Positions 6,169 to 37,011 of a stretch of 64,000 nt of DNA are shown here, one piece after another. A program made the translations under genes and the position numbers. The DNA is from an uncultured bacterium (GTDB lineage: Bacteria; Chlamydiota; Chlamydiia; Chlamydiales; SLFE01). Every line of letters starts with the position of its first letter. Positions within the stretch are counted from its first letter, which is position 1. The DNA is taken from contig CAZPBC010000002.1 of the NCBI GenBank assembly GCA_964584775.1, forward strand, positions 19,627 through 83,626, in the 5' to 3' direction. Under the pieces are notes generated by a model. That model made no database searches. It was not told where the DNA came from and saw only the letters and a list, made by a program, of their open reading frames with translations.

Positions 6169-7238
6169 AAAAAGTGATTGTGACGAGCTTACTCGTCATC
6201 GCCTCGGTTGTCTCTCTCTACACTCTTCCACATATGTTGAAGAGCCGCGACCTCGACCCTGACCTTTTGGCGGGAATGACAGATGGACTGATCGAGCGCG
6301 TGATCCCCGTCCACATTCCAGAGGCAGCAAACGCATACAACCCCGGCTTTATCCGCTTTAAAGACCACTACCTCCTCGCCTTCCGTTACGACTACCCTCC
6401 AAAAATTTCGCTCGAGCGCCTTCAAAAAGAGACCACTCCCTACCTAGGCATTGTCGAGCTGGATGTCAATTTCAAACCGATCAGGAAATTCCAGCTTCTC
6501 AACACCCGACCAGACAACCCCCACGTCCCCCAACAAGCCGAAGACCCACGTCTGGTCCGTGTTGCTGATAAAATTTACCTCTTCTTCAACGACAACCAGA
6601 AGGGAACCCGCTACGGTGAGAGACAGATCTACTTCGCTGAAGTCTTTCAAGATGACACCCGCTTTTTTCTAGGTCCCATTCGCAAAGTGGACCCTCCACA
6701 CCGCAAAGCCTCCTATGAAAAAAACTGGATGCCTTTCGCTTACCGAGGCGATCTCTACGTCGTCTATATGGTCGATCCCCATACCATCTTCAAAATCAAT
6801 CCCAATAACGGTGAAGTGGAAGAGTTTTACAACACCACTTACGGGTACCAGTGGGACTATGGTCCTCTTCGAGGGGGAACACAGGCGGTCGAGCTTCCAG
6901 AAGAGGGAGAGTACATCGCCTTCACCCACTCTTCACTCTCGGCAAGACCGACCTGGCTCAAACGTCGGATTGGGATGGTCTACTTCATGGGAGCCTACAC
7001 CTTTGAAAACCAGCCTCCCTTCCACGTCAAGCGCCTCAGCCCAGCACCCATCACAGACAAGAGCTTCTACGTCTCCAAAAACCGCAGGAAGGTGATTTTT
7101 CCAAGCGGAGTGGTCCACAACGGAAACAAGCTCTATGTGGCATTTGGGCAGAACGACAGCTACATGAACATCGCTGTCATCGACAAGAAAAAGCTTTTAC
7201 AAACGCTCAAGCCGGTTGAAGCAAAAGAGAGCGAATGA
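6165..7238 (+). CDS. Signal-anchored protein resembling the DUF377/GH130-type beta-propeller glycosidase/phosphorylase family
   Basis: 357 aa with an N-terminal anchor (VIVTSLLVIASVVSLY). Motifs EDPRLV, EKNWMPF and VAFGQNDSYMNIAVID. ATGA start/stop overlaps with both neighbours. The functional call is low confidence; the coding call is high. Confidence 0.6.
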   Translation: MKKVIVTSLLVIASVVSLYTLPHMLKSRDLDPDLLAGMTDGLIERVIPVHIPEAANAYNPGFIRFKDHYLLAFRYDYPPKISLERLQKETTPYLGIVELDVNFKPIRKFQLLNTRPDNPHVPQQAEDPRLVRVADKIYLFFNDNQKGTRYGERQIYFAEVFQDDTRFFLGPIRKVDPPHRKASYEKNWMPFAYRGDLYVVYMVDPHTIFKINPNNGEVEEFYNTTYGYQWDYGPLRGGTQAVELPEEGEYIAFTHSSLSARPTWLKRRIGMVYFMGAYTFENQPPFHVKRLSPAPITDKSFYVSKNRRKVIFPSGVVHNGNKLYVAFGQNDSYMNIAVIDKKKLLQTLKPVEAKESE

Positions 7239-7897
7239 CTCTACATTTTCTCGAGTTTGAGCAGCTGAAGGCAGAAAAAGGCATCAAAGCCGGCGTTGCC
7301 TATAGACAGCCTCCACAAGAGATGGAGTCGATTTGGGAAGCTTTCTGCCCAGAGGCGAAAGGTGCCCATGTCCGTCAAGTCCATGGAGACCGTGTCGTCG
7401 TCGCTCAAGCAGATGAGGCTCCCGAGGCGGACGGGCTCATGACAAACGAACCGCAACTCTGTCTCACGATTAAACACGCGGACTGCCAACCTGCCATCTT
7501 CTACGACCCCACTCTCAAGGTGCTCGCGAGTGTCCACTCTGGCTGGAGAGGATCGGTCCAGAACATCTATCACAAGACCGTCGAGCAGATGAAACAAACT
7601 TACGGTGTGAAACCTGAAAACCTCCTCGTCTCGATCGGCCCAAGCCTGGGGCCGGAGAAAGCAGAGTTCATCCACTACAAAACGGAGCTTCCCGAGTCCT
7701 TTTGGAAGCACCAAACAGCTCTCAACCACTTTGACTTTTGGGCTATCAGCCGTGAACAGCTCACCCAGGCCGGAGTGCTCGACCATCATATCGAGATTTT
7801 GGGGCTCTGCACCTACTCGGATAAAGAGAACTTCTACTCATACCGACGCGACAAAACCCGCCTTCGACACTATACATTAGCAGCCCTGCTTCCATAG
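7235..7897 (+). CDS. pgeF: Peptidoglycan editing factor PgeF / YfiH (DUF152 laccase-domain protein)
   Basis: Motifs ADGLMT, HADCQPAIFYD, HSGWRGS, CTYS..FYSYRRD. Confidence 0.85.
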   Translation: MTLHFLEFEQLKAEKGIKAGVAYRQPPQEMESIWEAFCPEAKGAHVRQVHGDRVVVAQADEAPEADGLMTNEPQLCLTIKHADCQPAIFYDPTLKVLASVHSGWRGSVQNIYHKTVEQMKQTYGVKPENLLVSIGPSLGPEKAEFIHYKTELPESFWKHQTALNHFDFWAISREQLTQAGVLDHHIEILGLCTYSDKENFYSYRRDKTRLRHYTLAALLP

Positions 7898-10194: not shown

Positions 10195-10244
10195 ATCCCA
10201 AGTGTATTAAAATCAATCATCTAAGTCGATTTTTTTCTATATTT

Positions 10245-10308
10245 GACTATTTATTATATAGGTGTGAGAATAGTCACGACTATTTTCACATACATGTGGT
10301 AAATAGTC
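10245..10308. repeat. Nested inverted repeats built from four GACTATTT/AAATAGTC motifs (likely a bidirectional terminator region)
   Basis: GACTATTTA 10245-10253, AATAGTC 10269-10275, GACTATTTT 10278-10286, AAATAGTC 10301-10308. Lies in a convergent intergenic region. Confidence 0.4.
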
Positions 10309-10315
10309 GAGCTCA

Positions 10316-29271: not shown

Positions 29272-30318
29272 TCAGAAGCCGACACGGATGCCGCCGTAGA
29301 GTCCATGAAGCATCAGGTTAGAGCCGTTATCCGAAGTGGACCCACCCCCGGCACCAGTCACAGCACCTGCAGTTCCATCGAAAATATTCTCTTGCCAAAG
29401 CTTGCGTATCTGAGGAAGGTTCCACCAGTTGATGAACTCATATCCCAAGTGCAGATCGATATGGCGTCCACAATAACAGATTTTATAGGAGAGCCCTGTT
29501 TGGAGATGGACACCAGGGGTGCAGAGTGGGTAATCGGAAATGATATCGCAAAACGCAAAAAACTCTTCTTGATTGACAAAGGTCTCAATGTAAGCCTCTG
29601 ACTCCTGATAGCCTGCAACAACGGAAAACGCTCCACGGACAATCCAATCCAAACCGCACATCCAAGAAAGACGGTAATCGGTACCGAGTTCAAAACCGAG
29701 TGCCTTGTAGTCGGAGTTCCAAAGAGCAATCTCACACAATAAGTTACAGTCGGGCACTCGAGAATCAATATTCTGTTCGAGGCGGAGTCCTTGGAGACCA
29801 AAAAAGGTGTTGATACAGTGCCCTTCACAGAGAGAAAATTGACGTCCGACAAGCAGGTCGACTGTCTGATAGTGCAGGGTATTTATGCTCATCAGTTGCC
29901 CTACTGGAAAACCGGATGGGTTGTAGAGGGACTCCAAGTATAAAGTCGTAGGGCTATCACCACAGCAATCTGCACTATCAGATTGACGGGTCCAGAAGTA
30001 GGTATAGTGAGCCATCAACTGATAATCACAGTGGCAGCCGAGTGGGGAAGCTAGATGGATGCGGAATCCTGGATCCCAGCGGTACTCAACAGAAAGGTAG
30101 TCCACATCGGTGACTCCATTCTCTTCTTGCACATAGGCAGCATAATCCTGGCCCGTCTTACACGCGTGCCAGTAGAGAACATCCACGCCCACCTCTAAAT
30201 CATCAAAAAGGCAACAATCCGTAAGACAACCACACGTTCCTCCATAAACAGTACCCACCTGCACGATGAAGGCAACCAAAAATCCGAATAAGAAACGTGT
30301 GGCGTTGGTCATGAACAT
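29272..30318 (-). CDS. Cysteine-rich beta-barrel outer membrane protein, paralogue 1 (most divergent)
   Basis: 348 aa with a signal peptide. DVLYWHACK, SDYKALGFELG, LCTPGVHLQTGLSY, C-terminal NLMLHGLYGGIRVGF. Confidence 0.85.
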   Translation of the reverse strand: MFMTNATRFLFGFLVAFIVQVGTVYGGTCGCLTDCCLFDDLEVGVDVLYWHACKTGQDYAAYVQEENGVTDVDYLSVEYRWDPGFRIHLASPLGCHCDYQLMAHYTYFWTRQSDSADCCGDSPTTLYLESLYNPSGFPVGQLMSINTLHYQTVDLLVGRQFSLCEGHCINTFFGLQGLRLEQNIDSRVPDCNLLCEIALWNSDYKALGFELGTDYRLSWMCGLDWIVRGAFSVVAGYQESEAYIETFVNQEEFFAFCDIISDYPLCTPGVHLQTGLSYKICYCGRHIDLHLGYEFINWWNLPQIRKLWQENIFDGTAGAVTGAGGGSTSDNGSNLMLHGLYGGIRVGF

Positions 30319-30327
30319 CCTCAGGCG

Positions 30328-31329
30328 TTAGAAGCCGACACCCATGCCTACAAAGAGGCCGTGCATCATCAAGTTTCCACCTGTAGACGAAGTCGTTGTC
30401 TGCTGCCCTGCAATCCCATATTGACGGATCTGTGCGACATTCCACCAATCGGTGAACTCATATCCAATGCGGAAGGTGAAATCGCGGTCGCACCAGCATT
30501 TGTCGTAAGAGAGTCCCACCTGTAGATGAACACCTGGGGTGCAGAGACCCTTATCGTCGCTATACTCTCTCGCTCCTATGAAGGTGTCACTCACAAAAAA
30601 CGACTCCTCTCTCTCAACATCGTTGCAACCAGCCACGAAGGAGACACCCGCACGGGTGAAGAGTCCTAAACCACATTCAAGGTCATAGTTGTAAAGAGCT
30701 CCAAGCTCAAGACCGAGAGCTTTGTAATCAGAGATCCAGGATAAGTCGGTAAAGTTGCCAATCGCAACCGTCTGGTTACGCTGGACCAGTCCCTGACGGA
30801 TTTTGACTCCTTGGATTCCAAAGAAGGGCTTGATCTTCTGACACTTACAGAAGCAGAACTCATACCCAAGAAGCACATCAAAGGTTTGATAAGTGAGCGT
30901 GTTCCTTGCATCGATCTCACCAAGAGTGCTGTTAGGATCAGAACCGTTGGAGCTGATCAAAGCCACATTGGTTCCCGATTCCACATGATCACTTCCGCTC
31001 GCCCAAAGATAGGTGTAGGATGCACACATGTCCCAGCCGCAATAGACATTTTCTTTTCCTGCATAGAGACGGAACCCAGGCTCCCAGCCCATCGGAGCGT
31101 AGTGGGGCTCAGCAGCTGTCAAATTTGTGACAGAGGTGTCGATGGTGACACCATACTGAGGGTTATCCTTGCAAACATTCCAGAAAAGAAAGTCAGCGCC
31201 GACACTCCAACCCCCACAGGGATCGAAGCACTCATCGGTCGGGCAGCATTGATCTGCCTGTATTGGAGACACTTGAAGTGCAAACAACGCACTCAAAGTG
31301 AGTAGTTTTCGGAAAAATTGGCTCATCAA
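30328..31329 (-). CDS. Cysteine-rich beta-barrel OMP, paralogue 2
   Basis: 333 aa; signal peptide, CCPTDECFDPCGGWSVGADFLFWNVCK, CFCKCQ, LCTPGVHLQVGLSYDKCWCD, NLMMHGLFVGMGVGF. Confidence 0.88.
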   Translation of the reverse strand: MMSQFFRKLLTLSALFALQVSPIQADQCCPTDECFDPCGGWSVGADFLFWNVCKDNPQYGVTIDTSVTNLTAAEPHYAPMGWEPGFRLYAGKENVYCGWDMCASYTYLWASGSDHVESGTNVALISSNGSDPNSTLGEIDARNTLTYQTFDVLLGYEFCFCKCQKIKPFFGIQGVKIRQGLVQRNQTVAIGNFTDLSWISDYKALGLELGALYNYDLECGLGLFTRAGVSFVAGCNDVEREESFFVSDTFIGAREYSDDKGLCTPGVHLQVGLSYDKCWCDRDFTFRIGYEFTDWWNVAQIRQYGIAGQQTTTSSTGGNLMMHGLFVGMGVGF

Positions 31330-31395
31330 AAGCTCCTTGTCTCGTTAAAAAATTGCTATATTATTCTGAAGATAGGTCAACGGACGATTTAGTGC

Positions 31396-31428
31396 AAAAA
31401 AAGGAGCCCTAAAAAGGACTCCTTTTTC
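31396..31428 (-). terminator. Bidirectional hairpin terminator after OMP paralogue 3
   Basis: A-run, GGAGCCC-taaaaa-GGACTCC, T-run. Lies 24 nt beyond the stop. Confidence 0.6.
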
Positions 31429-31452
31429 TTTAAATCAGCTAGACGGATCCGT

Positions 31453-32439
31453 TTAGAAGCCGACATTCGCTCCTAAGAAGAGACCGTGCATCATCAGGTT
31501 TCCGCCTGTCGAATGTGTCGAAGTGGGAAGACCCGATGCAGGGTAGCGGCGCACCAATGGAACATTCCACCAGTTTTGGAACTCATATCCCACACGGAAA
31601 CCAAAGTCCCATCCACACCAGCACTTCTCGTAGGTCAATCCCACTTGCAGTTGCAGTCCAGGGGTACAAAGGCCTCTGTCATCTATTAAATCATTTACAA
31701 AAATGGAAGAACCATTGTTCACAAGGTCAACCAATTCAGAGTCGTCGTTTCCAGCAACAAAAGAGACGGCCGTTTTTGTGAAGAGTCCTACTCCACAATC
31801 CAAGTCGTAGCTATAGACCGTTCCAAGCTCGAGCCCAAGAGCTTTGTAGTCCGACTGCCAACCTACAGCATTGAGACTCAAAGTAGGGCTTGATTGAAGG
31901 ATCTCAACTTGAGCATATTGTTGCTTAATTTTTACGCCTTGAATCCCAAAGAAAGGTCTGATTCTCTGACACTTGCAGAAGCAAAACTCATATCCTAAGA
32001 GAACATCGAATGTCTGGTATGTCAGGTTGTTTTGAGCTGCGATTGCTTCAGCAGGCTTCTGAGTTAATCCAATGGTGTTGACAAGGGTAGAGTTGGTATC
32101 GTCAAGTCCCTTCGTATCGCCATCGGCAGAAACACGTGTGTAAGAAGCATAGAAGTCCCATCCGCAGAAAACATTTTCTTTTCCTAGGAAGACGCGGAAT
32201 CCAGGCTCCCATCCAATTGGAGCGTACTGGTATGTGGCTTCAAGTTCGTTGGTCGAGCTCACGAGCGTCGCCGCATAGTCAGGGTTGTCTTTACAGATAT
32301 TCCAGTATAGGAAGTCCGCACCGACGCTCCATCCACCACACGGATCAAAGCATTCATCTTGTGGACAGCAGTTATCTGCCTGAATATGAGCAGCTTGCAT
32401 TGAAACTAATGCCAGTGCTGCAAAGAAAATTCGTTTCAT
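31453..32439 (-). CDS. Cysteine-rich beta-barrel OMP, paralogue 3
   Basis: 328 aa; CCPQDECFDPCGGWSVGADFLYWNICK; C-terminal NLMMHGLFLGANVGF. Confidence 0.88.
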   Translation of the reverse strand: MKRIFFAALALVSMQAAHIQADNCCPQDECFDPCGGWSVGADFLYWNICKDNPDYAATLVSSTNELEATYQYAPIGWEPGFRVFLGKENVFCGWDFYASYTRVSADGDTKGLDDTNSTLVNTIGLTQKPAEAIAAQNNLTYQTFDVLLGYEFCFCKCQRIRPFFGIQGVKIKQQYAQVEILQSSPTLSLNAVGWQSDYKALGLELGTVYSYDLDCGVGLFTKTAVSFVAGNDDSELVDLVNNGSSIFVNDLIDDRGLCTPGLQLQVGLTYEKCWCGWDFGFRVGYEFQNWWNVPLVRRYPASGLPTSTHSTGGNLMMHGLFLGANVGF

Positions 32440-32506
32440 CGATCACTCCATTTTTGATCAGTTCAAAATATATTTCCTCCTTATAAAACATTTTCTTATT
32501 AACAAC

Positions 32507-32536
32507 AAAAAAAAAGAGCTTCAAAGAAGCTCTTTT
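32507..32536 (-). terminator. Bidirectional hairpin terminator after OMP paralogue 4
   Basis: A-run, AAGAGCTTC-aaa-GAAGCTCTT, T-run. Lies 25 nt beyond the stop. Confidence 0.65.
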
Positions 32537-32561
32537 GCACATTATGAATTCATTGACCGGA

Positions 32562-33542
32562 CTAAAAACCCACATCCATGCCAAGAAAGAGGCCATGCAT
32601 CATCAGATGCCCATCGTTTCCAGAGGTCGAAGCGAAGAAAACGGGTACAGCGTACTCGCGAATCTGTGCTACATTCCACCAGTTCGTGAATTCATAGCCA
32701 ATATGAAAGTTGAAGACCCTCTCACACCAGCAATGGTCGTAGTTCAAACCGAGCTGAAGATGCATTCCAGGGGTGCAGAGGCTCGTTTCACTTTTAATAT
32801 CACGCCTGAATATGGAAACACCCCCAGACGTCTCTTCAAAGACCAGATCATCGCTCGTTCCCGCCACAAAAGAAACTGAGGCTCTGGTGAAGAGTCCTAG
32901 TCCGCAGTCGAGGTTGTAGCTGTAAATGGAACCCAGCTCAAGACCGAGGGCCTTGTAGTCAGAGTTCCAAATGACCTTGTTGATCGTTGGAGCCTGGAAG
33001 AACTCGCTCAGTTGGTCGAAATTCTGCTCAAGGCGGACTCCCTGAATTCCAAAGAAGGGTTTGATGGTTTGACACTGGCAAAAACAGTAGTCATAGCCCA
33101 AAAGCACTTCAAATGTTTGGTAATTGAGGGTGTTCTTTGCTGTCGCAGCTGCCACGTTGTTCTGGAAAATCCCTGTGGTCACCACAAAGGTGGTATTCTC
33201 ATTTTCAACGCGGTCATGCCCGCTTGCATACATATAAGTGTAAGAGGCAGAGAGATCCCACCCACAAAACACGTTCTCCTTACCCGCATAGACTCTGAAA
33301 CCAGGTTCCCAGCCATAAGTGGCATAATGATAGGTGTTGTCTAGAACATCGACCACACCCGTTTCGATGGTAACGGCATAGTTTGGGTTGTTTTTACAGA
33401 CGTTCCAGTAGAGAAAATCAACGCCGACGTTCCAACCACCACATGGGTCAAAGCACTCATTCGTCGGGCAGCAGTCATCCGCTTGGACTAGTGCACACTG
33501 CAAGAAAACAACCGCTAAAGCCGCAGATAAAACTCTTTTCAT
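32562..33542 (-). CDS. Cysteine-rich beta-barrel OMP, paralogue 4
   Basis: 326 aa; CCPTNECFDPCGGWNVGVDFLYWNVCK; HLMMHGLFLGMDVGF. Confidence 0.88.
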   Translation of the reverse strand: MKRVLSAALAVVFLQCALVQADDCCPTNECFDPCGGWNVGVDFLYWNVCKNNPNYAVTIETGVVDVLDNTYHYATYGWEPGFRVYAGKENVFCGWDLSASYTYMYASGHDRVENENTTFVVTTGIFQNNVAAATAKNTLNYQTFEVLLGYDYCFCQCQTIKPFFGIQGVRLEQNFDQLSEFFQAPTINKVIWNSDYKALGLELGSIYSYNLDCGLGLFTRASVSFVAGTSDDLVFEETSGGVSIFRRDIKSETSLCTPGMHLQLGLNYDHCWCERVFNFHIGYEFTNWWNVAQIREYAVPVFFASTSGNDGHLMMHGLFLGMDVGF

Positions 33543-33591
33543 AAATCCTCCATTTTAAAATTTGAAAATAGAGCAATTGATCATTTAGCAC

Positions 33592-33625
33592 AAAAAAAAA
33601 GAGCCTCACCTGGAGACTCTTTTTC
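33592..33625 (-). terminator. Hairpin terminator of OMP paralogue 5, displaced from the stop codon by the repeat insertion
   Basis: A9, GAGCCTC-acctg-GAGACTC, T-run. Confidence 0.55.
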
Positions 33626-33651
33626 ACTTTAGAATTCCTAGAGCTCGCTTG

Positions 33652-33815
33652 CCTGGATATTTCATGAAGACTTGTGAAAATGGGGCAAAATGACCGGCAA
33701 ATTCGATAGAACTCACTTGAAGGGAAGGGTTCTACACCCTTTCCGAGAGGGAGTTCTATCGAAGTTGATGAAGGCATTTTGTGACAGTTTTGCGAGTGTT
33801 TATGAAATATCCAGG
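33652..33815. repeat. 164-bp palindromic MITE-like element, copy A
   Basis: Termini are CCTGGATATTTCATGAAGAC... and ...TTTATGAAATATCCAGG. Internal arms pair (TTCGATAGAACTC on both arms) and the centre is GGGAAGGGTTCTACACCCTTTCC. Homologous along its full length to 41183-41347. Directly abuts the stop codon of OMP paralogue 5. Confidence 0.75.
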
Positions 33816-34805
33816 CTAAAACCCGACATCCATGCCCACAAAGAGACCGTGCATCATGAGGTGTCCGTTATTTAGGTTGGTCGAAGAGGGAATATTCCTA
33901 TCAGCAAAGCGAGGAGCCTGTCCCACATTCCACCAATGAGTAAACTCATACCCGACATGGAAGCTCAACTCTTTTTCACACCAGCAGTGATCGTAGTTCA
34001 GACCGACTTGAAGGTGCATTCCCGGAGTGCAGAGGCCCGTTTCGAGTTTAAACTCCTCTGTCGTCACTGTCATCCCCTGCGAGGTCTCTTCAAAAAGTAC
34101 ACCATCGTTGGTTCCGGCGACTAAAGAGGCAGAGGCTCTCGTAAAGAGTCCTACCCCACAGTCAAGGTTGTAGCTGTACAGAGAGCCGAGCTCAAGGCCG
34201 AGCGCTTTGTAGTCAGAGTTCCAAATCACCTTATTGTTGTTTGGAGCTTGCAAGAACTCGCTGAACTGATCGAAGTTCTGCTCCAGGCGCAGACCCTGGA
34301 TTCCGAAGAAGGGCTTGATGGTTTGGCACTGACAAAAGCAGTAGTCATAGCCCATCAGAACTTCAAATGTTTGGTAATTGAGGCTGTTTTTCGCTGTCAC
34401 TGCTGCGACATCGCCCAGAAAAACCCCTGTGGTGACCACGATGGTCATATTTTCATTGTCTACACGGTCCTGCCCGCTTGCATAGATGTAGCTATAAGAA
34501 GCTGCGAGATCCCATCCACAAAAGACATTCTCCTTGCCTGCGTAGACCCTGAAACCGGGTTCCCAGCCATAGCCTGCAAAGTGATAGGTGAAGTCAAGGT
34601 CATCGACCACACCCGTTTGGATGGTCACGGCGTAGTCTGGGTTGTTTTTACAGACGTTCCAATAAAGAAAATCGACACCCACACTCCATCCACCGCAAGG
34701 ATCAAAGCATTCACTTGTCGGACAGCAGTCGTCTGCTGAAAGGGAAGAAGCATGTACAGAGAAGAGAGCTAAGAGAGCGAGAAAACTGGATTTAAATGAG
34801 TTCAT
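33816..34805 (-). CDS. Cysteine-rich beta-barrel OMP, paralogue 5
   Basis: 329 aa; CCPTSECFDPCGGWSVGVDFLYWNVCK; HLMMHGLFVGMDVGF. Confidence 0.88.
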   Translation of the reverse strand: MNSFKSSFLALLALFSVHASSLSADDCCPTSECFDPCGGWSVGVDFLYWNVCKNNPDYAVTIQTGVVDDLDFTYHFAGYGWEPGFRVYAGKENVFCGWDLAASYSYIYASGQDRVDNENMTIVVTTGVFLGDVAAVTAKNSLNYQTFEVLMGYDYCFCQCQTIKPFFGIQGLRLEQNFDQFSEFLQAPNNNKVIWNSDYKALGLELGSLYSYNLDCGVGLFTRASASLVAGTNDGVLFEETSQGMTVTTEEFKLETGLCTPGMHLQVGLNYDHCWCEKELSFHVGYEFTHWWNVGQAPRFADRNIPSSTNLNNGHLMMHGLFVGMDVGF

Positions 34806-34869
34806 GAAGGGTCCTCCGACTTGTTTGTTCTCAAAATAGACTTTTCACGAATTTAGAACAAAAAAAGGA

Positions 34870-34903
34870 GCCTCAAAAGAGACTCCCTTTTTTAGTCATT
34901 GGT
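34870..34903 (-). terminator. Bidirectional hairpin terminator after OMP paralogue 6
   Basis: A7, GGAGCCTC-aaaa-GAGACTCC, T-run. Lies 13 nt beyond the stop. Confidence 0.6.
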
Positions 34904-34916
34904 ACAAACAACGGGC

Positions 34917-35924
34917 TTAGAAGCCGACGTCCATTCCAAGCACAAGACCGTGCATCATGAGGCTTTCGCCTGAAGCAGAAGTCGTTGTGAAGTTACCTGG
35001 AGAAGGGAAGCGGCGAGCTTGTGCCACATTCCACCACTCTTGGAACTCGTATCCAACATGGAATGTAAAGATACGGTCACACCAGCACTTGTCGTAGCAG
35101 AAAAGAACCTGCAGGTTCAGTCCAGGTGTGCAAAGTCCAGAGTCCGAACGGAAAGTCTGTGTTGTATCTGTAGAAACACCGTCAGTAAACTGGATGTTTT
35201 TTACATCGTTGTTACCAGCTACGAGAGAAACACCCGCTTTAGTGCAGAAGTTTAGTCCGCACTCAAAGGCGTACTTGTAGCTAGATCCAAACTCAAGACC
35301 GAGAGCTTTGTAATCAGATGTCCAAGAGACTGTCTGAGACTCAGCAGCTGTCTCGTTACGAGCATCAAGACCTTGCTTGATTTTCACACCTTGAAGACCA
35401 AAGAAAGGAGTAAAGAGGTGTCCTTGGCAGATGCAGCACTCGTAGTGCATCAACACATCAAAAGTTTGATAGTTGAGTGTGTTCTTCGCTTCTATTGCAG
35501 TCAAGCTGTTGAGAGGCTGGAAGAAGTAAGTCGATCCCAATCCAACGATTGGAGATGCGAGCTCTACACGCTCATGACCGGTTGCGTAGTAGTCGGTGTA
35601 AGAAACCGTTAGGTCCCATCCGCAGTAGACGTTTTCTTTACCAAGGCGTAGACGGAAGCCAGGGTTCCAGCCCATATCTACATAGTGGTCTGTTACAGCA
35701 GTTGTATTTGAGTCAACCTGCACATTTGAAGTTCCGTACAGTAGGTTTCCTCTGCAGGCTTTCCAATACAGGAAGTCCGCACCGAAGCTCCATCCCCCGC
35801 AAGGGTCGAAGCACTCATCACAGCAGTCACTATTAGCATAATGATACTCTGCCTGAACTTGGGCTGTCATCAATGTGAAGATGGAAAGCAGCCCTAAGCT
35901 AAAATTTCGAATTTGATTTTTCAT
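34917..35924 (-). CDS. Cysteine-rich beta-barrel OMP, paralogue 6
   Basis: 335 aa; CCDECFDPCGGWSFGADFLYWKACR; SLMMHGLVLGMDVGF. Confidence 0.88.
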   Translation of the reverse strand: MKNQIRNFSLGLLSIFTLMTAQVQAEYHYANSDCCDECFDPCGGWSFGADFLYWKACRGNLLYGTSNVQVDSNTTAVTDHYVDMGWNPGFRLRLGKENVYCGWDLTVSYTDYYATGHERVELASPIVGLGSTYFFQPLNSLTAIEAKNTLNYQTFDVLMHYECCICQGHLFTPFFGLQGVKIKQGLDARNETAAESQTVSWTSDYKALGLEFGSSYKYAFECGLNFCTKAGVSLVAGNNDVKNIQFTDGVSTDTTQTFRSDSGLCTPGLNLQVLFCYDKCWCDRIFTFHVGYEFQEWWNVAQARRFPSPGNFTTTSASGESLMMHGLVLGMDVGF

Positions 35925-35961
35925 TTAAAAATCGCTCCTTATTGATTCATATATTTTGGGC

Positions 35962-36975
35962 TTAGAAGCCAATATCCATTCCAACAAATAGTCCGTGCAT
36001 CATCAAGTTTCCGATAGAGCCTGATGTTGTCACGTTGCCTCCAGGTAGAGGATGTTGACGCACTTGTGGGATATTCCACCAGTCTTGGAACTCGTATCCA
36101 GCGTGGAAGCTGAAGACACGGTCACACCAGCACTTCTCGAAAGAGAATCCAACTTGAACGTGCATTCCTGGAGAGCAGTACCCAGGATTTCCAGTGAACT
36201 CTAAACTTTCAATCGCAGAACCATCGTCAATCTGTTCAATATCTTGATAGTCGTTGTTACCAGCAACAAGGGAAAGAGACGCTTTTGTGAAGAGTCCGAG
36301 TCCACACTGTAGGCTGTACTGGTACATCGTTCCAAGCTCAAGACCTAGAGCTTTGTAAGTCGACTCCCATGCGATTGTTTCTATGGGAAACTCGTCGTCA
36401 GTAAGGTGTGCAAGAGAGTCAAAGTTTTGCTGAATACGAACGCCTTGAATTCCAAAGAAAGGCTTCACAGACTGGCACTCACAGAAGCAGTACTCATATC
36501 CCATAAGGACATCAAAATCTTGATACTGAAGGCTGTTCTTCGCGTTGATGTCGAAGAGGCTGTCAGAAGTAAAGCCCACTGTATTCACAAGGGTATTGTT
36601 TCCAGCTTCAACAAAGTTGCTTCCGTTGGAGCGGAAGAAAGTATAAGAGGCTGAGAGATCCCATCCACAGTAGACGTTCTCTTTGCCAAGACGGATACGG
36701 AATCCAGGATCCCAGCCCGTATTCGCATACTTGTAGGTCGTTGTGGTCACTGGGGGATTGTTGTCGTCAATGACGACTGCAAAATCAGGGTTGTTTTTGC
36801 AGGCATGCCAGTAAAGGAAGTCAATTCCGACGCTCCAACCACCGCACATGTCACCCACGTCGCAGCAGCTAAAGCAGTCTGTCTCAGGGCAGCAGGTCGC
36901 TGCACTTGCCTGTGCCGTCACCATGGTGAACGCTGCAAGCAAACTTAAGCTTAAGTTTTTGATTGTTTTATTCAT
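35962..36975 (-). CDS. Cysteine-rich beta-barrel OMP, paralogue 7
   Basis: 337 aa; CCPETDCFSCCDVGDMCGGWSVGIDFLYWHACK; NLMMHGLFVGMDIGF. Confidence 0.88.
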   Translation of the reverse strand: MNKTIKNLSLSLLAAFTMVTAQASAATCCPETDCFSCCDVGDMCGGWSVGIDFLYWHACKNNPDFAVVIDDNNPPVTTTTYKYANTGWDPGFRIRLGKENVYCGWDLSASYTFFRSNGSNFVEAGNNTLVNTVGFTSDSLFDINAKNSLQYQDFDVLMGYEYCFCECQSVKPFFGIQGVRIQQNFDSLAHLTDDEFPIETIAWESTYKALGLELGTMYQYSLQCGLGLFTKASLSLVAGNNDYQDIEQIDDGSAIESLEFTGNPGYCSPGMHVQVGFSFEKCWCDRVFSFHAGYEFQDWWNIPQVRQHPLPGGNVTTSGSIGNLMMHGLFVGMDIGF

Positions 36976-37011
36976 AGAGTTCTTACTCCTTGTTTGTTTT
37001 CGTTAAACTTT

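Follow-up and report, generated by a model that had tools for sequence, protein, structure and literature searches.

An undescribed, probably MITE-type palindromic repeat abutting the stop codon of a surface-protein paralogue in an uncultured bacterium

The palindrome behind OMP paralogue 5

The window, by which we mean the whole stretch of 64,000 nucleotides that was analyzed, comes from an uncultured bacterium and carries eight Legionella_OMP (PF05150) paralogues in tandem at 29272–38010, the C-termini of which all read ...GF or ...VY and are followed by the stop. The fifth of them, here called OMP5 (33816–34805, minus strand), encodes a cysteine-rich protein (Pfam Legionella_OMP, E 1.8e-30), and the five other paralogues that a search recovered are 46–74% identical to it. 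Among 5.8 billion proteins, no OMP homologue was found at E <= 1e-20 beyond six of these paralogues, and the paralogue family is very lineage-specific. A search for orthologous OMP arrays, which might have held empty sites, returned the window's own paralogues only.

When comparing the spacers of the array, we found 273 nt after OMP5 against 111–123 nt after paralogues 3, 4 and 6 (31330–31452, 32440–32561 and 34806–34916, respectively, all on the minus strand). When the four spacers are aligned with MAFFT, the element described below appears as a single unbroken gap block of ~167 nt that starts at the stop codon. The residual flank beyond it (GAATTC..AAAGTG..AAAGAG) aligns with the spacer of paralogue 4, which has a homologous GAATTC flank and terminator. 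The intrinsic terminator of OMP5 (33595–33625, minus strand), a 13-pair stem with a T-run, is retained 26 nt beyond the element, and homologous terminators follow paralogues 3, 4 and 6, where the stem starts ~23–27 nt past the stop. An earlier note on this DNA had taken the paralogous intergenic regions for empty sites and the 26-nt flank for a homologue of that of paralogue 4; the alignment bears out both, and the clean gap block supports an insertion. The distance of 13–25 nt between stop and hairpin that the same note gave for the other units was roughly right. The odd 273-nt spacer in the OMP array is explained by the element.

This element (copy w1; 33651–33816 on the plus strand, which is also the family polarity; covariance-model match of 170.5 bits, E 3e-38) has a core of 164 nt at 33652–33815, or 166 nt counting the outer pair G33651–C33816, and is an imperfect palindrome over nearly its whole length. 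The left arm (33652–33692, plus strand) is a terminal inverted repeat starting with CCTGGATATTTCAT (33652–33665), and the right arm (33775–33815, plus strand) finishes with ATGAAATATCCAGG (33802–33815); besides these exact 14-nt termini, the arms are 79% complementary over 42 nt and pair at 90% over an inner 20 nt. The apical hairpin, GGGAAGGGT-loop-ACCCTTTCC (33722–33744, plus strand), shows the strongest sequence conservation in the family and is missing in its 84-nt forms. Folded as RNA, the plus strand reaches −89.5 kcal/mol (z −12.9) and the complement, which is what OMP5 mRNA bears, −61.4 kcal/mol (z −9.8), with 0 of 200 shuffles as good in either case. Next to the element, the CTA at 33816–33818 is the TAG stop of the minus-strand OMP5 gene, with zero spacing. 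No open frame is conserved among the family copies, most of which have stops in all frames, and the element's translated frames, used as queries to catch spurious ORFs over other copies, had no match among 5.8 billion proteins. What had been read from the letters alone, namely inverted termini with pairing arms, direct contact with the OMP5 TAG and no encoded transposase, was therefore confirmed, and the folding that had been proposed as a check set both strands far apart from shuffled sequence.

Elsewhere in the window, three adjacent minus-strand genes at 10316–17763 encode proteins with microbial PARG catalytic domains, one of them of 1441 aa and with a Macro domain as well; the proteins may be effectors that reverse ADP-ribosylation. 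An AT-rich 72-nt hairpin (10241–10312), separated by 3 nt from the TGA that ends the PARG gene 10316–11812, may be a terminator; it matches the family covariance model weakly, at 22.5 bits, and we rejected it as a copy, having found no convincing sequence relationship. The SecA gene (18363–21347) has an insertion of ~220 residues in the DEAD motor domain (Pfam match over residues 6–514, for a model of 290 positions). At 42396–46880, a cluster of eukaryote-like proteins, two with LRRs and one with a RasGEF domain, suggests a host-associated lifestyle. Just past the left end of the window, contigs L119 (12758–21362) and L129 (3413–18936) carry canonical type VI secretion genes (ClpV, TssK/VasE, gp25-like, ImpA, DotU, TssF and VipA), which adjoin a ninth Legionella_OMP-like gene.

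Family copies, flanks and stop codons

The terminus pattern of the element occurs five times in the window versus 0.45 expected. A second full copy, w2 (41182–41348, plus strand), is 78% identical to w1 with the same polarity, folds at z −9.5 and −11.3, and occupies most of a 245-nt intergenic region between the divergent genes 39210–41144 (minus) and 41390–42421 (plus). Its right arm holds a sigma-70-like motif (TTGCGA-18-TAAAAT, 41311–41340) facing the heptosyltransferase gene that starts at 41390; as this motif is present in w2 only, we rejected an outward promoter as a feature of the family. An internally deleted mini copy of 38 nt at 23509–23546 (plus strand), also in a divergent intergenic region, keeps both termini (TCTGGATATTTCAC...CCCAGA) and folds at −13.9 kcal/mol (z −4.5), and a left-arm remnant of ~38 nt lies just outside the window (L122, 3208–3292). 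Scanning metagenomes with a degenerate terminus pattern yielded 12 loci, five with genuine relatives and seven by chance; the single-terminus matches in L100, L101, L104, L106–L108 and L110 cease to resemble the element immediately past the pattern, which makes them chance matches and not IS ends. The relatives are three full copies, L105a (L105, 1155–1319), L109a (L109, 3528–3693) and L103b (L103, 6107–6271, with L111 being the same region from another sample), and two 84-nt short forms, L103s (L103, 2156–2239) and L102s (L102, 31–114). The family in the ~185 kb examined thus comprises five full copies, two short forms, one mini copy and one remnant, or nine loci, and its members differ by 15–22%. 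The copy-number search that had been called for therefore turned up further copies at unrelated loci, in the window and on metagenome contigs of the same organism. A local, non-mobile palindrome, made by inverted duplication or kept as part of a bidirectional terminator, might fit the terminator region behind OMP5 and those copies that lie between convergent genes; it is contradicted by the at least nine related copies at unrelated loci, by the absence of a T-run after either end and by the original terminator retained downstream, and we give it practically no credence.

Both 84-nt forms, although at different loci, have a common deletion junction at which AAAATGGG joins ACGA. On the simplest reading of this shared sequence, the short form itself would have spread; recurrent slippage between GGGA repeats is a weaker alternative. 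Contigs L113, L116 and L118 break within the element (L113 stops 14 nt past its edge, and the other two begin inside it), and the metagenome assemblies of this organism are fragmented because of the repeat.

All of these copies belong to one host population. Along 6,963 nt, a locus of the same sample series matches the window at 100% identity, and the proteins of L109 and those of the window come from the same samples, each on 14 contigs. We therefore rejected the idea that L102–L111 stem from a second organism, given the same samples and the same contig counts as for the window contigs. Strain variants of the flanking genes are all at least 99.98% identical and element-bearing, and no filled/empty polymorphism was seen among the recovered strains; since all strains are this similar and related species were not found, there is no orthologous empty site for comparison. 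Among 185,579 species genomes, the conserved core gave four chance matches and the window's own copies were not recovered, which means that this set lacks the host genome. Two scans of viral contigs gave chance matches only, searches of plasmids, of phages and, by blastn, of 5,426 E. coli genomes (28 Gb) found no similarity, and no copy in another organism emerged from the genome, viral, plasmid, phage, E. coli and metagenome scans together. A literature string search with the termini and the core returned nothing relevant. The family is known from a single uncultured population. Within it, we counted four copies of any kind over ~97 kb of uninterrupted sequence that includes the window, which by extrapolation suggests tens of copies per genome. 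Walking outward on three more contigs (~30 kb of new sequence) gave no further copy and no transposase, and the autonomous partner that the earlier note had proposed to look for did not materialize: ~185 kb of this organism's DNA yielded neither transposase nor IS with matching termini.

Taking as flanks the four bases just outside CCTGG...CCAGG on each side, we obtained a consensus of CTAA on both sides. Only L105a and L103s have perfect CTAA/CTAA flanks, while those of the other six copies are degenerate. For w1, the right flank is CTAA (33816–33819), a candidate copy of a target-site duplication, and the left flank CTTG (33648–33651) is its degenerate partner with 2 of 4 bases kept; the left and right flanks are CAAG and CCAA for w2, CTAC and CTGA for L109a, and GTAG and CAAA for L103b, with right flanks of TTAG for L102s and TTAA for the mini copy. 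L105a and L103s are also the youngest copies, because their arms differ at only 1 of 84 positions, and a genuine target-site duplication would be expected to erode with age in this way. The check for such duplications therefore had a mixed outcome, perfect in two copies and degenerate in six. In 4 of 6 left flanks and 4 of 7 right flanks there is a TA one base beyond CCTGG...CCAGG, and the outermost bases of the 166-nt version pair in 5 of 8 copies. The flanks would fit equally well a 4-bp duplication at Py-T-A-Pu (YTAR, IS5-type) or a TA duplication of a 166-nt element. CTAA, like CTAG and TTAG, is among the targets of IS5, and the likeness to IS5 is one of target choice only, the CTAA flanks matching its Py-T-A-Pu targets (PMC5493358). 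Unlike our non-coding family, IS5 is a 1.2-kb autonomous element, and the DNA examined yielded no IS5-family transposase. The target duplication of IS5 is 4 bp long, and its terminal repeats start with GGAAGGTG, which is unrelated to CCTGGATATTTCAT.

At 5 of 8 loci the element abuts a stop codon exactly, with zero spacing. The genes concerned are OMP5, an aconitase gene (L105), genes for 499 aa and 171 aa (L103) and a gene for 620 aa (L102), and they enter the element from either end (three from the left, two from the right). On either strand CTAA contains a stop triplet, TAA one way and TAG (TTAG) the other, so that stop codons would be natural target sites; the stop would be restored either by the duplication or by the first base of the element (A or G), and because it is restored, such insertions would be harmless and persist. 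The full copy on L103 (6106–6272) abuts the TAG of the 171-aa gene with one end and at its opposite end runs into a convergent 410-aa gene (6256–7488, minus), to which it contributes the final five codons along with the TAA. We counted 50 intergenic CTAA/TTAG sites in the window versus 11 stop codons in that context, which by a binomial estimate puts the probability of at least 5 of 8 copies abutting at ~0.007; for plain TA sites (433 versus 31) the estimate is ~6e-5. Target choice explains much of the stop abutment, but not all, and the remainder of the excess may reflect the loss of insertions from promoter regions. An imperfect palindrome of this length, directly after stop codons and with one strand folding better, also resembles an integron attC recombination site at the ends of gene cassettes. 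We regard that reading as having next to no chance: the termini are GCCTGGAT...ATCCAGGC, with no RYYYAAC/GTTRRRY core sites, the copies are scattered by housekeeping genes (aconitase, OMP, VIT1) rather than in a cassette array, some lie between divergent genes, and there is no integrase in the annotated neighbourhoods.

Stem covariation and the nature of the element

Covariation was computed on the five full copies, in which 93% of the cells of the 69 stem pairs do pair. As many as 18 of the 69 pairs have changed on both sides, compared with 6.9 ± 1.9 in shuffles (0 of 500 shuffles reached this number) and 0–4 in controls with slid partners, so the covariation analysis that had been suggested gave a strong signal. 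Eleven of the double-changed pairs are in the terminal 24 nt and seven further in, within columns 25–120. The terminus of L103b, TCCAGATATGCCCTAAATTC, is wholly different from the others, yet perfectly complementary to its partner, and in the apical hairpin (helix 3) 7 of 9 pairs are invariant. With five sequences, such covariation can originate in a propagating lineage, in which both ends must fit one transposase, or in selection on resident RNA hairpins; at the least, the pairing of the stem, kept while the family diverged, reflects a constraint on the propagating lineage. The two strands are not equivalent. In 5 of 6 copies the plus strand folds 17–28 kcal/mol better than the complement because of G·U pairs (28 G·U versus 8 A·C cells), and OMP5 mRNA carries the weaker-folding strand. 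The CTAA flank, for its part, lies the same way round relative to the family polarity in ~6 of 8 copies, which a simple DDE model does not predict.

These features bear on the second possibility raised in the earlier note, that the element is a structured RNA module, the resident copies of which the host would keep for the function of the hairpin as a 3' UTR stabilizer, a processing site or an sRNA. The covariation along the whole stem, with its seven inner double-changed pairs, the better-folding plus strand with its excess of G·U cells, the nearly invariant apex and the five copies at 3' UTR positions all argue for it. However, the stop-abutting copies present either strand to the mRNA (three plus, two minus) and three copies sit between divergent genes, and this use of both orientations and of divergent sites speaks against a dedicated cis-acting RNA as the primary nature of the element. 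In addition, the short forms persist and fold without the conserved apex, the excess of derived G·U over A·C changes (~13 versus 7 columns) is non-significant, and covariation can arise in a propagating lineage rather than in resident copies. Nor did Rfam have a match: none was obtained at gathering scores across the whole window, and around the element there were only chance-level hits with E of at least 0.17. A host-selected RNA module is therefore unlikely as the main explanation, even though the strong covariation leaves room for an RNA role as an added layer.

The strand asymmetry also fits movement as single-stranded DNA by an HUH/Y1 transposase (IS200/IS605- or REP/RAYT-like), which would insert the element in one orientation 3' of CTAA, the right CTAA then being the element's own end. 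G·T wobble in single-stranded DNA would give the same strand-specific fold advantage, and the shared polarity of the CTAA flank in ~6 of 8 copies would follow. This mechanism nevertheless strikes us as highly improbable, since the terminal inverted repeats run end to end instead of forming separate subterminal hairpins, the element is far longer than REPs (20–40 nt) and lacks their GTAG or CGTC heads, the DNA examined yielded no Y1 transposase, and the orientation bias is marginal (one-sided P ~0.06), three of the copies being one subfamily. There is, finally, a small chance that the family is a polarity-bearing hairpin that seeks out stop codons, sits in fixed orientation at CTAA and has its stem selected in resident copies, as a domesticated 3'-UTR module or an ssDNA-moved element. 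We keep this reading because the abutment exceeds site availability (P ~0.007), the fold asymmetry is consistent and the covariation extends over the whole stem.

With good confidence, we favour the insertion of a non-autonomous, MITE-type element into the CTAA/TA of the OMP5 stop, where it is now co-transcribed as a long hairpin before the retained terminator. A transposase supplied in trans would have inserted it at a CTAA-type site, duplicating either CTAA (in the style of IS5) or the central TA alone (in the style of IS630/mariner). The duplication would have restored the OMP5 stop, leaving the element without spacing on the TAG and upstream of the original terminator, so that it would be transcribed along with the gene, as a hairpin of 164 nt in the OMP5 3' UTR. 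We infer mobility from the empty paralogous spacers, the dispersed copies at unrelated loci, the CTAA flanks, the shared deletion junction and the assembly breaks. The same observations support the MITE-like, non-autonomous insertion proposed at the outset; with dispersed copies, CTAA flanks and a common junction in hand, the case that these were the only copies and bore no signatures of mobility did not arise.

Likeness to known repeats and meaning for the organism

Although the family was undescribed, its kind is familiar: it is most likely a bacterial MITE, with likenesses to Correia, ERIC, RUP and QMITE2. It has several generic traits of such elements, being under ~500 bp and non-coding, with terminal inverted repeats in the five full copies and with dispersed copies. 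Correia elements (CREE/NEMIS) of Neisseria are non-coding palindromic MITEs of ~100–160 bp with many intergenic copies in full and internally deleted classes, a TA-containing target duplication and no known transposase partner; RNase III cleaves their co-transcribed hairpins, and some copies also act as promoters (PMC2229807, PMC10969869). Exact stop-codon abutment, as seen here, is not among the Correia features in these two papers (PMC2229807, PMC10969869). The two share a small, intergenic, palindromic and non-coding build, size classes, TA-containing flanks and, for the DNA examined here, the missing partner. They differ in that pairing is full-length in our family and mainly confined to a 26-nt terminal repeat in Correia, that no IHF site was identified in our family, and that a promoter-like motif occurs here in one copy only (w2). 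The Correia termini also appear to differ from those of our family, and no sequence relationship between the two is apparent.

ERIC (IRU) of enterobacteria is an imperfect palindrome of ~127 bp, often at the 3' ends of genes, where the hairpin alters mRNA decay and, in transcripts, exposes an RNase E site (PMC10969869). Our family is likewise a full-length imperfect palindrome often at gene 3' ends, but it is 164–166 bp long and belongs to another host lineage, and the absence of any match in the 5,426 E. coli genomes rules out ERIC, REP/BIME and other E. coli repeats by sequence. REP/RAYT-associated palindromes, which are 20–40 nt long, begin with a GTAG or CGTC head, are often clustered and lack terminal repeats and duplications, were also rejected, as the element here has 164 nt, no GTAG/CGTC head and single copies. 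RUP of Streptococcus pneumoniae is a small non-coding MITE with terminal repeats that inserts at TA and is mobilized by IS630-Spn1 (PMC2229807). One reading of the flanks here, a TA duplication, is similar; unlike RUP, however, which has a partner IS with matching termini and copies that are highly similar to one another, our family has no such partner in the DNA examined and copies that differ by 15–22%. QMITE2 of Coxiella burnetii, itself an intracellular bacterium, is 150–190 bp long, comes in large and small versions, lies mainly in 3' UTRs and intergenic regions, has variable direct repeats of 7–11 nt and contains a GTAG REP targeted by IS1111 (PMC5896051). In size, in its large and small versions and in its 3' UTR and intergenic placement our family is close to it, whereas our copies have a short, CTAA-like flanking repeat and lack a GTAG REP.

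If it behaves as Correia and ERIC hairpins do, the hairpin in the OMP5 3' UTR could alter mRNA decay, either as a cleavage site for RNase III or RNase E or by shielding the message from 3' exonucleases. For annotation, the element accounts for the 273-nt OMP spacer, for contig breaks and for the last five codons and stop of one gene (on L103). It also offers a simple and testable reason why small transposons can sit exactly on stop codons, since CTAA reads as a stop whichever strand is taken and the duplication would restore that stop. The finding brings to light a MITE family, undescribed so far, in an uncultured bacterium with a host-associated look (type VI secretion, cysteine-rich OMPs, RasGEF, LRR and PARG proteins), in which one surface-protein paralogue has a 164-nt hairpin in its 3' UTR that could set its expression apart from that of its neighbours.
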